From the IMG/VR virus record IMGVR_UViG_2667527789_000010: a stretch of DNA of 13,352 bases, one strand, 5' to 3'. Source of the DNA: a virus (lineage: Duplodnaviria; Heunggongvirae; Uroviricota; Caudoviricetes). The position numbers and the translations under genes were made by a program. Below the pieces are notes generated by a model, which saw only the letters and a program-made list of their open reading frames with translations, searched no databases and had not been told where the DNA came from. Shown here one piece after another: positions 1,826-12,300 of this stretch (the stretch's first letter is position 1; each line of letters begins with the position of its first letter).

Positions 1826-2106
1826 GAGATTGTGGTGCTTTTTGTGGGAGTCATCCACTTACGCACTTTGTTTTGCGATGCCAGCAGTTAGCTTCTGCTG
1901 TGAAACTATTCATGCAGCAAACCTGCACTTCACCACAATGGTTAGCATACTTTTCCTGATTAAGATTTTGCCAAATATGCTAGCCATTGTTTCATGTATT
2001 GGACCTCCTTACTTTTTATTAAAGAGATCCAATATTCACTACTCTGTCCGTATCTCTACTCAGGCATCAGCCTTCTTCGTTATCGTATACAGACGAGCGA
2101 TGAATT

Positions 2107-2322
2107 TTAATCAGTAATGATGACATTTGCTGCTGCAGGACCTTTAGCACCACTCTCTATAGAGAAGGTAACCTTTTGACCTTCAAATAAGGTTCGATAA
2201 TTATCATTCTGAATCGCAGAAAAATGCACAAACACATCTTTACTACCATCAACAGGAGAAATAAAGCCGAAACCTTTATCAGCGTTAAACCATTTTACTA
2301 AACCAGTCATTTTATTTGACAT
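2107..2322 (-). CDS. cspB: Cold-shock protein CspB (CspA family, 71 aa)
   Basis: [71 protein letters not shown] has the RNP1 (KGFGFI) and RNP2 (VFVHF) motifs. SD AAGGAA upstream of the ATG at 2320-2322. Confidence 0.9.
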
Positions 2323-2480
2323 TCTACATTCCTTAACTTGAGCCTTTCGGCATAAATGGTTTGCATAACAGAAACGACTTCGTACTTAATTGGAGAGACT
2401 CAAAGAAGGAATAAGTGAATAACACCTGAAATGAGAACTGCTTTAGTAAACTACTTCGTATATCGTCTGTTCTTCAAACC
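2323..2480 (-). promoter_or_regulatory. cspB long 5' UTR with cold-box-like element
   Basis: About 160 nt of non-coding leader upstream of cspB. Minus strand contains TGAAGAACAGACGA (complement of about 2464-2477), resembling the cspA-family cold box UGACGUACAGA. The promoter itself was not pinned down. Confidence 0.4.
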
Positions 2481-2620
2481 GACGCAGTCATTAACTCATA
2501 GTTGAACATATGAAGCAATGTTTATTTTAGACATCCAGCCACCTTCAATCCTATCAAAAAAGTAGTTTTCTCCAGGAACGTGTGTATGGTGCACCAGGTT
2601 ATCAGTATTAAGGAGTTTTT

Positions 2621-2867: not shown

Positions 2868-2902
2868 AAAACCCGCTTATAAGCGGGTTTTCTACTTTTT
2901 TC
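2868..2902. terminator. Bidirectional rho-independent terminator (tR'-like for the late transcript and terminator of the cspF-like gene)
   Basis: Perfect palindrome AAACCCGCTTA|TAAGCGGGTTT (2870-2891) followed by TCTACTTTTTT on the plus strand and by TTTTTGTGCTTT on the minus strand. Confidence 0.6.
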
Positions 2903-2938
2903 TAAACGTCGGATACACAAAGCCCATCGTTGAGAAAA

Positions 2939-2967
2939 TCTTATCCATGTTTTTTGAAAAATGCAAA
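2939..2967 (-). promoter_or_regulatory. Candidate late promoter (PR'-like) immediately downstream of the Q-like gene
   Basis: Minus strand reads TTGCAT (complement of 2962-2967), a 17-nt spacer, then TAAGAT (complement of 2939-2944), starting about 30 nt after the quuQ stop and about 50 nt before the terminator at 2870-2891. The arrangement matches lambdoid Q/PR'/tR' logic. Confidence 0.35.
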
Positions 2968-2997: not shown

Positions 2998-3750
2998 TTA
3001 TCTCGTCACCTTCCTCAATTGCGCTTCCGCGTATGCTTCTTCCTGCCAGCACTTTGTTACCAGTTTACCAATGACGTCCGCATACCCCTTATACCACTGA
3101 TAATCGGTCAGGTCTGGTACCAGCTTCTGGACATGACGTCGTGCCAGCGTGGTCGGTAAACGACTAAACCGGTTTCCATTACAACGCCCACAAATCTTAT
3201 ATACCGGTACGCCATGAAACCGGGTTCTTTTTTCATCCAGAACAATCCCTTTACCCTTACACCCTCTGCACGCTGTGCTGACTTCGCCCTTACCATGGCA
3301 ATGCTGACATAGTTCCTTCACCCATTCTTCCTTGATTACAGATTCCCCGCGTCTGTAGTGTTTCACCACTTCGCGCAATACATTATAAAATCCCGTACCT
3401 GAACAATGCTCACAGCGAGCCTTACTTGCCGCAGACCTGGAGTAATCAGCAAAGGCAAAATTCACGAGGTAAGGAATAATCTGTAACCGGATTTCTTCAC
3501 TCAATTTGTTCAATGTCGGGTTATCCAGTGCCATCGCGTAATTTAGCAGGCCTTCAATCGCAAACTGAGCGTCCTGAACACCAACTTTTGCCAGAAATAA
3601 GGCCAACCCAAGTGGTGCTTTCGACTGCACCATCCCCTGCGCTGCCATTACATCCGTAATTGTTAAACAACCGGTGCCTGTCGCTGGAGCGTCATCGCTC
3701 AATTTTGGAGATTTTGGGGAGTAATATTTTGGTAAGGCTTCAAGGTTCAT
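2998..3750 (-). CDS. quuQ: Late-gene antiterminator Q-like protein (QuuQ-like, 250 aa) with four CxxCxGxG zinc-finger repeats
   Basis: ATG at 3748-3750 preceded by GGAG. Contains [24 protein letters not shown] and CGRCNGNR repeats. Sits directly upstream of the lysis cassette and candidate late promoter. Length matches K-12 QuuQ by recall. The track's 260-aa version is an upstream extension. Confidence 0.7.
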
Positions 3751-5559: not shown

Positions 5560-5627
5560 AAGTGCGGGTGCGTTGAGGATGCCTGCCACATCAGAGGTGG
5601 CGAGGGATTTCTCCCTCGCCGGGTTTC

Positions 5628-5783
5628 TTACTCCTCAGGTTCGTAAGCTGTGAAGACAGCGACCTCCGTCTGGCCGGTTCGGATTCGTACCTCGCAGAGG
5701 TCTTTCCTCGTTACCAGTGCCGTCACTATGACGGTTAAACAGATGACGATCAGGGCGATTAACATCGCCTTTTGCTGCTTCAT
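5628..5783 (-). CDS. hokD: Hok-family type I toxin (51 aa), HokD-like
   Basis: MKQQKAMLIALIVICLTVIVTALVTRKDLCEVRIRTGQTEVAVFTAYEPEE: single TM helix plus the conserved Hok C-terminal region. SD AAGGAG lies 9 nt upstream of the ATG at 5781-5783. Confidence 0.85.
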   Translation of the reverse strand: MKQQKAMLIALIVICLTVIVTALVTRKDLCEVRIRTGQTEVAVFTAYEPEE

Positions 5784-5840
5784 AGCCTGCTTCTCCTTGC
5801 CTTTCGGCACGTAAGAGGCTAACCTACATATGTCTAGCAT
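5628..5840 (-). CDS. Mok-like reading frame (in-frame 19-codon N-terminal extension of hok)
   Basis: ATG at 5838-5840 with no SD gives MLDICRLASYVPKGKEKQA fused in frame to Hok. This resembles the chromosomal mok/hok arrangement in which mok shares the hok stop; that arrangement is recalled, not checked. Confidence 0.4.
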   Translation of the reverse strand: MLDICRLASYVPKGKEKQAMKQQKAMLIALIVICLTVIVTALVTRKDLCEVRIRTGQTEVAVFTAYEPEE

Positions 5841-5958
5841 GAAATTGGCCTCAGATTAATGTTAAGCGTCTTGCAGGACGCGTAATGTTAACTGGGGCTT
5901 TTCTCTATCTGCCGTTGGTGTTCATGCCCGAGGCAGATAGCCTCAAGCACCCGCAGCC

Positions 5959-5987
5959 ATTCTACTTAACTACCGTTACCTCGCCAA
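5959..5987 (-). promoter_or_regulatory. Candidate sigma70 promoter of the hok/mok transcript
   Basis: Minus strand reads TTGGCG, a 17-nt spacer, then TAGAAT (complement of 5982-5987 and 5959-5964). The predicted transcript from about 5951 to the terminator at about 5540 is roughly 410 nt, the size class of hok mRNAs. Confidence 0.4.
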
Positions 5988-6457
5988 TGTGAAATCAGTC
6001 AGAAAGGCGATCCATAAGAACAATAGCAAGACAATAAATCGCCATTACAGCCGTAATAGCCAGCGCACATTTGAGAACCAGCACCACAACCTCCTGTATT
6101 GGACGTAGACCAGTCCTGATGAATATGAGGCTGTCTCGTCAGTGATTCAATACAACTATTGGGTATAGTTTCTCTGATTTTTTCTGTGGAAATGGGGCAC
6201 AACCACTAGTCACCACCAGCACTTCTTTTAATACGCAAAGTCCGACACAAGCTAACCTTCTAGTCCGCTTTGAGCGAAAAACAGCCATAATTTAGTGCCA
6301 CGTATATAATGATAGAGCTATTCAAGCTAGCAATTCACATGTAAAAATTCAGAGGGTAGAAGCACATAGTTATAAATGTTGGCTCCATCGACAAATTGCG
6401 GTCTCAAGTACATTTATTAATGTTGCCCCCGCATTAACAAATCATCAAGGTGACGAC

Positions 6458-8245
6458 ATGGACGATATTAATATCAGCCTCGACGAACTTAACACTATTG
6501 ATTTATCCCCCTTAATCCAGAGTAAGCTGCCAGTTACCTGCTTTGATATCACAAAGTATCTTTCTAGCCTAGGTGATGGAAGAGCGGAGATAAGACTGCT
6601 AACCCATATTTGCGGTTTTCACTTTCGTCCCGAAAATCCACAGGTACCATTTGGTCCGTGCTTTCAAAGCAGCCAAGGTAGATCTGCAATTCCGGATGAC
6701 ATTAACGGGTTGTCGCTGGAGGTACTTTCTCAATTTTGCCCGACGATAGAGCTACCCGAACTTCAAGCTCGTATTGCTGATACACTTTGGGTTCGTAAAA
6801 TTGGTGGAATCCGTTTTCCTTTGCTGGCAGTCCGTGCTTATTATGCGTCCAGTATAGCTATTATGACATCGCAAGGGACGTGGGTTAGTGCTTTAGAACG
6901 CCTAGAGCGTGCGCTTAGGCTGTGTTGTTTTTTTCGAAAGCATACTGATTTCAGGGATGAATTTGATCAGCTTTCGGCACATCTACTAGCAGAGTATGAA
7001 CGTACCAGAGAACAAGGCGATTCACCTTATCCGCTGCGACTCCTGCAACTCGATATCGACTGTAAAGTGAGTGAGCCATCTTTTATTGCCCAGGAACTCC
7101 TGTTTCTGACAAAAAACTATCTGGCTCAAAAATTATTTTCATTTGCCGTCGATGCCTGTAAAACCGCAATCCCGATTGCGAATAGGTGCTGTGACAGAGA
7201 TACACAGTTTGAATTCTGGCGGCTTCTTGCCGATACACATCTGGAAGAGTCAAAATTCCAAGATGGCGGTATGATTTCGGCAGCCTGCATGCAGAATGCT
7301 ATTGAAGCACTGGCTAATATTCCAGGAACCCGAATAGAACGTCTTGCGCTGTATGAAGAAATGCGTGATTACCAAATCGAATCCCGTCACCAGATGTCTA
7401 TCCTTCAGTCTCCCCCTCAAGATATTAGTGAGATTGTCCATCAAGCCAAGAGTCGGGTAGTCGGAAGAGATTTGTTTGATATGGTTTTCAGACTTGCGAT
7501 GCTGGTCTGTCGGCCAACCAGCATTGAGAGACTTAAGGCTCAAGCAATAGAACAAAAGGCCAACAGCATAGCTTGGATGTTTGGATCAACACATATTGAT
7601 CATGAGGGAATGACACTTGCTCGCATACCCGCAGGATTGGGGATTGATGATGCAAATGGGGCAGTTATTTGGCCCATAATGATGACGAGAATGCGTATCG
7701 ACCATGAGTTGGCAGTAGCTGGGCAAATTATTCCTGCTACAGATGAGATCACAATGAAATATCCAATCTCGGAGGCGTTTTTTCGCGATATGTTCATCAA
7801 TCATCCCTTCATCCCGTTTGGGCATGAAGAGTTTTTCATCAAGGGTATGGTTTGCGGTTTCAATGGAGATTTTATGACGGCATGCCACGTGTTGATTCCC
7901 CAGCTCGAAAATAGTCTGAGATATGTGGCTAAAATTAAAGGTGAGGAACCATCGCAGCTTCACGGGGACGGTTCGCAAGAGCGAAATGGACTCAAGGGAT
8001 TACTAGATAATCCACTGATTATTGAAGCTTTCGGCGTAGACATAATTGGCAATCTTCAGGCCTTACTGGTAGATAAAATCTATGGTGATTTACGAAATCA
8101 ACTAGCTCACGGATATGTGCCTGCCGGTTACTACAATCAACCTCCCTGCATTTTTGCATGGTGGCTTGTATTGCACATTCTAATGAACCCTACGGCGAGA
8201 TACTGGCAAGCCACTTATGGCCAAGAGAGTGAGGCTCAGACTTAA
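6458..8245 (+). CDS. Large hypothetical protein (595 aa) with C-terminal HEPN-type R-x4-H motif; candidate defence/abortive-infection nuclease
   Basis: Unambiguous 1788-nt ORF with SD AAGGTG 5 nt upstream of the ATG. It is the only long plus-strand gene in an otherwise minus-strand block. Lower GC by eye (about 40-47%) and E. coli-rare codons (AGA, AGG, ATA, CTA). C-terminus contains GDLRNQLAHG; a second R-x5-H occurs at RDMFINH. No Walker A motif seen. Confidence 0.8.
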   Translation: MDDINISLDELNTIDLSPLIQSKLPVTCFDITKYLSSLGDGRAEIRLLTHICGFHFRPENPQVPFGPCFQSSQGRSAIPDDINGLSLEVLSQFCPTIELPELQARIADTLWVRKIGGIRFPLLAVRAYYASSIAIMTSQGTWVSALERLERALRLCCFFRKHTDFRDEFDQLSAHLLAEYERTREQGDSPYPLRLLQLDIDCKVSEPSFIAQELLFLTKNYLAQKLFSFAVDACKTAIPIANRCCDRDTQFEFWRLLADTHLEESKFQDGGMISAACMQNAIEALANIPGTRIERLALYEEMRDYQIESRHQMSILQSPPQDISEIVHQAKSRVVGRDLFDMVFRLAMLVCRPTSIERLKAQAIEQKANSIAWMFGSTHIDHEGMTLARIPAGLGIDDANGAVIWPIMMTRMRIDHELAVAGQIIPATDEITMKYPISEAFFRDMFINHPFIPFGHEEFFIKGMVCGFNGDFMTACHVLIPQLENSLRYVAKIKGEEPSQLHGDGSQERNGLKGLLDNPLIIEAFGVDIIGNLQALLVDKIYGDLRNQLAHGYVPAGYYNQPPCIFAWWLVLHILMNPTARYWQATYGQESEAQT

Positions 8246-12244: not shown

Positions 12245-12300
12245 TTTCTGGTGACGTTTGGCGGTATCAGTTTTACTCCGTGACTGCTCTGCCGCCGTTT
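12245..12300 (+). ncRNA. dicF: DicF small RNA (division-inhibiting sRNA targeting ftsZ) with intrinsic terminator
   Basis: tttctggtgacgtttggcggtatcagttttactccgtgactgctctgccgcc followed by gtttt matches my recollection of the 53-nt DicF sequence. The 3' GGCGG...CCGCC stem plus U-tract forms a terminator. Located between the ydfB/C region and dicB as in the K-12 operon. Confidence 0.75.

Follow-up and report, generated by a model that had tools for sequence, protein, structure and literature searches.

Between the promoter of a hok toxin locus and a 595-aa gene of a prophage lies a short hydrophobic reading frame that is preceded by a consensus Shine–Dalgarno (SD) sequence. The locus raises the question whether this frame is a gene and, if so, whether its product acts as a small toxin, as a membrane partner of the neighbouring defence-like gene or in a different way. 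Here, we address this question for the window, by which we mean the whole analysed stretch of 13,352 nucleotides (IMG/VR record IMGVR_UViG_2667527789_000010), and for related loci in genomes, plasmids and phages.

The window is a Qin-like lambdoid prophage of E. coli, and positions 5600–6500 are 100% identical to strain M16807. Its minus strand runs in the direction of the pR operon, with cro, a ydaT-like gene, replication genes, the DUF977 gene, the small ORF, hok/sok, rem, the DUF968 gene and Q in this order. Rfam models detect a cspA-type thermoregulator leader at 2091–2483 (minus strand, 158.8 bits) and the DicF sRNA at 12246–12297 (plus strand, 72.5 bits), as expected for a Qin-like prophage. 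The features that are relevant for the following are:

5995..6084, minus strand: small gene of 29 codons and a TGA stop, starting with the GTG at 6084–6082, product MLVLKCALAITAVMAIYCLAIVLMDRLSD
5997–5995, minus strand: stop codon TGA of the small gene
6085..6087, minus strand: upstream in-frame GTG, originally proposed as the start; the triplet is not conserved among relatives
6090..6095, minus strand: SD sequence AGGAGG, 5 nt ahead of the GTG at 6084
6122..6127, minus strand: putative −10 element CATATT, with a predicted transcription start near 6115
6145..6150, minus strand: putative −35 element TTGAAT of the small gene's promoter, a hexamer kept over a varying spacer
5983..6152, minus strand: self-contained module (putative promoter, 5′ UTR, ORF), the sole stretch shared with a locus that lacks hok
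6151..6280, no strand assigned: conserved non-coding stretch upstream of the putative promoter, with a sharp outer edge followed by variable cargo
5959..5987, minus strand: hok promoter TTGGCG-17-TAGAAT, a separate unit (context)
5628..5952, minus strand: hok/mok/sok locus (context)
5952–5778, minus strand: hok leader and Sok target, Rfam RF01794
5840–5628, minus strand: mok frame (context)
5783–5628, minus strand: hokD (context)
6458–8245, plus strand: 595-aa DUF4209 gene, located between the small ORF and the DUF977 gene, which are both on the other strand

Reading frame, start codon and translation

On the minus strand, AGGAGG (6095–6090) is followed by TT, a first GTG (6087–6085), a second GTG (6084–6082) and the open hydrophobic frame. 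This arrangement, the peptide encoded from it and its location between the hok promoter (5987–5959) and the 595-aa gene (6458–8245, plus strand) agree with the original prediction. The open frame with its SD also stands, and it is the proposed length of 30 codons that has to be revised. In many relatives, the first GTG is replaced by GTC, TAT, ATC, GTT or GCC. The second GTG is retained, with ATG at this place in the Shigella copy, and GGAGG or GGAGA precedes it at constant spacing in nearly all of 117 unique contexts. Since the second GTG is conserved and the first is not, the start lies one codon downstream, at 6084, and the product has 29 aa. A simple search of the window finds the SD-plus-start pattern three times, compared to 0.61 expected. 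The pattern is not rare on its own, so that the comparative evidence carries the case against a chance ORF.

Evidence for translation comes from the copy in BL21, which is listed in Table S4 of the preprint "The Cryptic Bacterial Microproteome" (PMC11188072) at NC_012971.2 1591437–1591524, minus strand, as VLVLKCTLAIVAVMAIYCLVIVLMDHLSD. The start listed there is the GTG equivalent to window position 6084. The Ribo-RET support is a re-analysis in this preprint with low counts, namely 13 retapamulin initiation-site (TIS) reads (fraction 1), and it is accompanied by 38 RPF reads over 90% of the ORF. The reads originate from the Ribo-RET sets of Meydan et al. 2019 in the smORFer analysis, and low read counts of this kind resemble those of some accepted small proteins in the same table (PMC11188072). 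The table assigns the copy to cluster Escherichia_98807 with 389 members, gives 'Entero67K' as its prediction class and predicts purifying selection (PMC11188072). We conclude that ribosomes initiate on the small ORF in BL21. A literal match of the peptide is absent from the paper texts that we searched, and it is the supplementary table that carries it.

The frame had been described as unannotated. This is correct for the present record, and NZ_CP031256, which is 100% identical, is blank between hokD and the DUF4209 gene. It does not hold elsewhere: a 29-aa variant of the product is annotated by PGAP as hypothetical protein WP_000960667.1 in other RefSeq genomes, and the GenBank entries of REL606 and BL21 name the BL21-type sequence 'membrane protein' or 'conserved hypothetical protein'. 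As a sequence, the ORF is not new, since it already has accessions as a hypothetical protein and one entry in a catalogue of microproteins.

To sample intactness independently of the frame, IMG/VR was scanned with a DNA pattern from the hok-promoter side only, starting from the last base of the ORF stop. Start codon, SD and uninterrupted frame are all kept in 98 of 107 usable loci. Eight of the nine exceptions are 5′ truncations through deletion or recombination; in the ninth, the frame is intact and the SD is weakened. No point frameshift or nonsense mutation of the small ORF was found among the 107 loci. In 20 unique full-length variants, we count 45 distinct site changes, which divide into 21 synonymous, 24 non-synonymous and no stop. 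For random change, a synonymous share of 26% is expected (binomial P 0.0025), and all five other frames score worse on this split. The non-synonymous changes are conservative (A/T/V/S, V/I/L, M/V, D/E, R/H). The frame is conserved with a bias towards synonymous sites. An overlapping 67-aa frame had been judged spurious, and we agree: across 50 unique relatives its open length varies from 18 to 118 codons, and its changes are mostly non-synonymous (36, with 8 synonymous). Two further candidates were rejected. The 49-aa ORF at 6139–6288 is interrupted by a stop in one divergent locus, L006 (read by eye), and an antisense 39-aa ORF annotated in one phage record overlaps frames that gain stops in variants.

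Divergent copies give the clearest measure of selection. The Nei–Gojobori dN/dS is 0.13 for the window and the locus of E. coli E10, 0.18 for the window and the Shigella virulence plasmid pINV, and 0.10 for E10 and pINV, at a synonymous divergence of 0.8–1.2 in these pairs. Among divergent copies as a whole it ranges from 0.09 to 0.26. One lineage (L116/L117) combines an ATG start with an in-frame deletion of one codon. Between close variants, dN/dS is near 0.5–1, and the value given for cluster Escherichia_98807 is 0.46 (PMC11188072, preprint), so that constraint is clear only over longer divergence. Judged from these comparisons, frame, SD and start codon are shown to be under purifying selection. 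Taking conservation and translation together, we regard it as very probable that the small ORF is a real translated membrane-peptide gene.

Synonymous change is not evenly distributed over the frame. Synonymous variants occur at 15 of 16 degenerate codons in codons 2–18, but only at 3 of 10 in codons 19–29 (window 5995–6030; one-sided Fisher P 0.0013). It follows that part of the conservation is at the nucleotide level, and an overlapping constraint of this kind on codons 19–29 is likely from the variant pattern. Masking of the SD, the history of recombination or an element upstream of the hok promoter could each account for it. The sequence of this stretch is complementary to the SD of the same gene, and the hok −35 follows just downstream.

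A compact unit at the edge of a cargo hotspot

Upstream of the SD, a putative promoter TTGAAT-17-CATATT is found. With 8 of 12 positions matching consensus it stays below the threshold of the promoter scanner. A −35 of the form TTGAAT, TTGAGT or TTGAAG together with the −10 CATATT is kept in six divergent loci: the window, L006, L003, L184, E. coli E10 (L005) and the Shigella flexneri plasmid pWR501 (L007). The 17-nt spacer differs among them. Hexamers that are kept over a variable spacer are the pattern expected of a working promoter. In BL21-type prophages, the putative promoter is absent and the final codons of the DUF977 gene overlap with the ORF; there, the ORF would be read from the phage operon. 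A promoter-like site is also present on the plus strand (GTGATT at 6142–6147, 16 nt, TATAGT at 6164–6169), back-to-back with that of the small gene.

The limits of the unit are defined by loci in foreign surroundings. E. coli E10 and a Shigella flexneri chromosome (L095) carry only promoter and ORF, in a different nin-region context and without hok, and homology of the E10 locus to the window is limited to 6152–5983. The module travels as a unit of ~170 bp with promoter-like −35 and −10 elements, 5′ UTR and ORF. On Shigella pINV the ORF is intact beside a truncated hok leader. These arrangements show, at the level of the compared loci, that the small-gene unit also survives without hok. Conversely, the unit is absent from the hok loci of 933W type and of K-12. 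Such presence or absence among related loci (E10 versus the 933W and K-12 types) is the discrete insertion that is typical of a moron.

In prophages of the window's type, the unit directly abuts the hok promoter. With the hok promoter at 5987–5959, its −35 begins 7 nt past the stop of the small gene, and no terminator was found between this stop and the hok promoter. A terminator-like hairpin within the ORF was rejected, as it is weak and not kept in E10. On the outer side, ~130 nt of conserved non-coding DNA (6151–6280) lie upstream of the putative promoter, and in most cases homology between loci ends sharply at window 6277–6288. For 5973–6290, neither an Rfam match, even at permissive E-values, nor a fold signal (z −0.3) was detected.

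Beyond this edge the neighbourhood changes. Among 195 loci, we count 44 distinct contexts upstream of the module boundary, and in BL21 the module follows directly after the DUF977 gene without any cargo. In the window, the hotspot between the DUF977 gene and the small-ORF/hok flank is occupied by the DUF4209 gene, whose 595-aa product is a match to PDC-S39, a candidate defence family of PADLOC (E 3e-102). The ORF region is joined to the DUF4209 gene in 152 genomes, compared to 1,685 genomes that carry the ORF region. Given the 44 contexts and the cargo-less BL21 locus, the small ORF is part of the conserved flank of a cargo hotspot and not a partner of DUF4209. In Qin-like lambdoid prophages, the unit marks the fixed border of this hotspot and adjoins the hok promoter.

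The ORF region is widespread in E. coli. Matches to 5975–6290 (316 bases) are present in 2,513 of 5,426 complete E. coli genomes. At least 80% of this region is covered in 1,685 of them, mostly at 90–95% identity, and it is almost never annotated. The peptide is found by tblastn in the four temperate phages mEp460_ev081, Evi, Tritos and HannyBb, relatives are encoded by 395 IMG/VR stretches, and 143 plasmids carry it, 124 of them from Shigella and nearly all at 72% identity over the full length. A pattern scan of one genome per species returns only Escherichia/Shigella and three oddly labelled metagenome-bin contigs; these are binned as Collinsella, Scatousia and Haemophilus and are taken to be mis-binned E. 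coli prophage DNA. An exhaustive representative search yields nine near-identical proteins, all at least 83% identical and mostly with spurious N-terminal extensions. By these searches, the family is narrow in diversity, with members from Escherichia and Shigella. For prophage Tritos, which carries the small ORF, hokD is reported at 3792-fold above the prophage background in the lysogen (PMC9928086). From this hokD figure, the locus is transcriptionally hot in the lysogen.

Several divergent loci show how the hok flank has been rearranged. The icsP upstream region is a model for control by H-NS and VirB. In pWR501 and in an ospC2-carrying E. coli plasmid, this region is built on a decayed lambdoid hok locus: an intact small ORF, a TTGGCG-18-TAGAAT hok promoter and ~70 nt of leader lie ~250–380 nt before the icsP start codon. 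In pWR501, the ORF occupies 3001–3090; after the hok promoter and the leader remnant, unrelated AT-rich DNA comes next, and the icsP start codon is located at 3381. Literature searches on the icsP upstream region returned no report of an ORF and no icsP start sites.

On an IncY plasmid (L009), a 34-aa relative, MSDDLSLAMEGALAVISVVGVYCLVVFLMDRMGN, which is annotated as WP_077779993.1 and is 43% identical, is found at the corresponding site ahead of the hok promoter, where the junction differs. The relative is weak by score (E 0.3) and is supported mainly by its position and the shared YCL..LMDR core. At ~1940–2130 of this locus, a gggtaaaaacg(t/g)t(t/c)gc-like sequence appears, by eye, to be repeated on both sides of the relative, which suggests that the cassette was inserted between a 27-aa ORF and the hok promoter. 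This unannotated transmembrane ORF of 27 codons is found on the IncY plasmid at 1866–1949 (MNWPEAFAITGVAMAIAFLVYVICRWG), and in 933W, where it abuts the hok promoter, at 2477–2394 of the minus strand (MTWPEAFANVGTVMAVVLVVYSICRWR). Its copies differ at many synonymous sites, which suggests that it is a further real small gene. In E. coli 2013C-4538, a degenerate 3′ remnant of the small ORF of ~30 nt lies before the hok promoter (~2890–2940, minus strand). It is cut off by a different upstream segment, with a partial pseudogene called by PGAP nearby, and the locus is one of the hits that match only to ~window 6023, like that of O157:H7 DEC4E.

The peptide and its possible roles

The original prediction of a hydrophobic single-TM peptide with a charged C-terminus is borne out: the gene encodes one very hydrophobic helix that ends in a short charged tail. 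The 29-aa peptide has a GRAVY of 1.74, and its best 19-residue window, CALAITAVMAIYCLAIVLM, averages 2.58. AlphaFold2 predicts one helix for residues 2–29 with a mean pLDDT of 92, a result that is expected of a single-sequence prediction for such a hydrophobic peptide and adds little. L8, A9, V13, Y17, C18, L19, L23 and M24 are invariant or near-invariant, followed by D/E-R and an acidic end. K5 near the N-terminus and the net negative tail suggest an N-in/C-out orientation. Due to the acidic N-terminus of the IncY relative, we hold this topology loosely. The peptide matches no family in Pfam, NCBIfam, PHROGs or PADLOC, and no Hok/Gef profile of Pfam or NCBIfam is matched by the window peptide at E up to 10.

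Two readings turn on distribution and frame conservation. A chance open frame within conserved non-coding DNA, be it a recombination boundary or DNA ahead of the hok promoter, could draw on the threefold occurrence of the SD-start pattern, on conservation that extends beyond the ORF, on the dN/dS near 1 of close variants and on the fact that PGAP usually leaves the ORF unannotated. The frame is intact in 98 of 107 loci, however, and it accumulates a synonymous-rich split of changes without stops, an in-frame indel, start switches from GTG to ATG and low dN/dS over long divergence. The hok-less E10 locus conserves only promoter and ORF, the Ribo-RET signal is present and no RNA structure was found. 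With this, chance is largely refuted, and we consider it very improbable. The proposal of a membrane partner for the adjacent DUF4209 (PDC-S39) gene relies on proximity, as both are 370 nt apart in divergent orientation, and on the strong family match of the larger protein. It does not survive the distribution: the junction is present in a small share of the genomes with the ORF region (152 vs 1,685), the upstream side takes 44 different forms and BL21 has the module without cargo. A specific partnership is refuted in this way, and its probability is close to negligible.

The remaining readings are about the membrane itself and about hok. Fst, Ldr, TisB and ZorO-type toxins are small and hydrophobic and carry a short charged tail. 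The peptide resembles them in all three properties, and it is encoded beside another type I toxin, hok. It could thus be a type I-like toxin that depolarises or permeabilises the inner membrane when expressed and that is held in check by weak GTG initiation, by mRNA folding or by an undetected RNA antitoxin. In the consensus fold, CAGGAGG, which contains the SD, is paired in each of the five compared sequences with the 3′-terminal ORF segment CCTTTCTG, in the stretch that is poor in synonymous change. These pairs are invariant, so that covariation lends them no support, and the z value is only −1.5. Fold energies of the inferred mRNA (z −1.5) and of its antisense strand (z −0.2) do not differ from those of shuffled sequences, and neither strand gives a fold signal. 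A conserved opposite-strand promoter over or beside the ORF was not found across the compared loci. No direct repeat could be the source of a divergent, complementary sRNA like IstR, OhsC or Orz, as the sole repeat has 11 nt with one mismatch and lies at the variable boundary. Neither an RNA family nor a toxin family is matched, and the short 5′ UTR, consensus SD and unregulated-looking promoter are unlike those of tightly silenced toxins. Of the features of a type I toxin, the small hydrophobic helix is thus present, and sequence analysis, which does not prove absence, detects no RNA antitoxin; we consider a toxin of this type unlikely. A functional tie to hok would mean that the peptide assists or opposes Hok in the membrane or, in a cis version, that transcription or translation of the ORF tunes the hok promoter or yields 5′-extended hok transcripts. 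In almost all loci, the stop codon lies right next to the hok promoter, a 43%-identical relative is found at the same place on the IncY plasmid with a different junction, no terminator was found in between, and the 3′ third of the ORF beside the promoter is under nucleotide-level constraint. On the other side, loci in which hok is missing or truncated (E10, the Shigella flexneri chromosome, pINV) still have an intact ORF with low dN/dS, many lambdoid hok loci (933W type, K-12 hokD) do not have it, and selection at the amino-acid level is not expected of a purely cis-acting element. Such a tie is improbable in our assessment. A special form of it, in which the peptide adds a third component, at the protein level, to lambdoid hok/sok and modulates insertion or oligomerisation of Hok or serves as second effector, would explain why two unrelated junction types place a family member immediately before hok and why 933W has another unannotated 27-aa transmembrane ORF at the same spot. 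We give it a low probability, of about one in ten.

Preferred reading and comparison with known systems

The best explanation overall, which we favour as probable, is a self-contained moron for a single-pass inner-membrane peptide. A sigma-70-type promoter belonging to the small gene would drive synthesis of the peptide in the lysogen, and read-through from pR would contribute in lytic growth, with the BL21 copy being fused to the end of the DUF977 gene. The peptide would span the inner membrane as a single helix and expose its acidic MDRLSD tail on the outer side. It may act by helix–helix contacts along its Ala/Cys/Tyr face and thereby modulate a membrane protein or the membrane itself. This mode of action, a moron-type small membrane protein acting via helix–helix contacts, is a tentative proposal to which we give somewhat less than an even chance; it draws on the resemblance to small membrane proteins that are already known and on the missing hallmarks of a type I system. 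In our best reading, the peptide is neither a classical RNA-controlled type I toxin nor a DUF4209 partner.

The small gene matters for its frequency and for its location. The ORF region is present in about a third to half of complete E. coli genomes and in inducible temperate phages, most Shigella virulence plasmids in the collection carry it, and standard annotation omits it almost everywhere. It is located in a highly expressed prophage region, beside a classic toxin and at the edge of a defence/cargo hotspot. Upstream of icsP, an unnoticed translated gene with its promoter could affect how reporter constructs of this region are read. If the peptide has a membrane target or interacts with Hok, a system regarded as purely RNA-controlled would gain a protein player. 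In the case that no phenotype exists, the small gene would be one more catalogued microprotein.

The closest comparison is with the existing entries. Cluster Escherichia_98807 of the Entero67K class, WP_000960667.1 and the REL606/BL21 entries represent the same ORF as in the window. They consist of a catalogue line and names, without locus description, hok linkage, promoter, icsP context or function; the gene is already catalogued, and characterisation is lacking from those entries. To these entries, the present analysis adds a corrected start codon, a putative promoter, the limits of the module, its linkage to hok, its location at the hotspot, its icsP context in Shigella and negative tests for an RNA antitoxin. 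With the one-helix type I toxins (Hok/Gef, Ldr, TisB, ZorO, Fst), the peptide shares tiny size, hydrophobicity and a short charged end, and its gene is likewise located on mobile DNA, here even beside hok. In contrast to these toxins, no RNA antitoxin, long structured leader or toxin-family similarity was found.

The E. coli inner-membrane regulators AcrZ, MgrB, MgtS, KdpF and CydX share the small size, the single helix and the SD-led ORF, and the peptide has a similar face of small residues that is suited to helix packing. These regulators are chromosomal core genes with known partners, whereas the small gene is borne by prophages and plasmids. Morons of temperate phages can encode membrane proteins, as for HK97 gp15, a superinfection-exclusion moron. 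Like gp15-type morons, the small gene is a compact unit with a putative promoter of its own between genes of the phage operon, although no terminator of its own was found. It is likewise present in functional temperate phages and is likely expressed in the lysogen. We conclude that the small gene is a member of the small single-helix membrane proteins of mobile elements.
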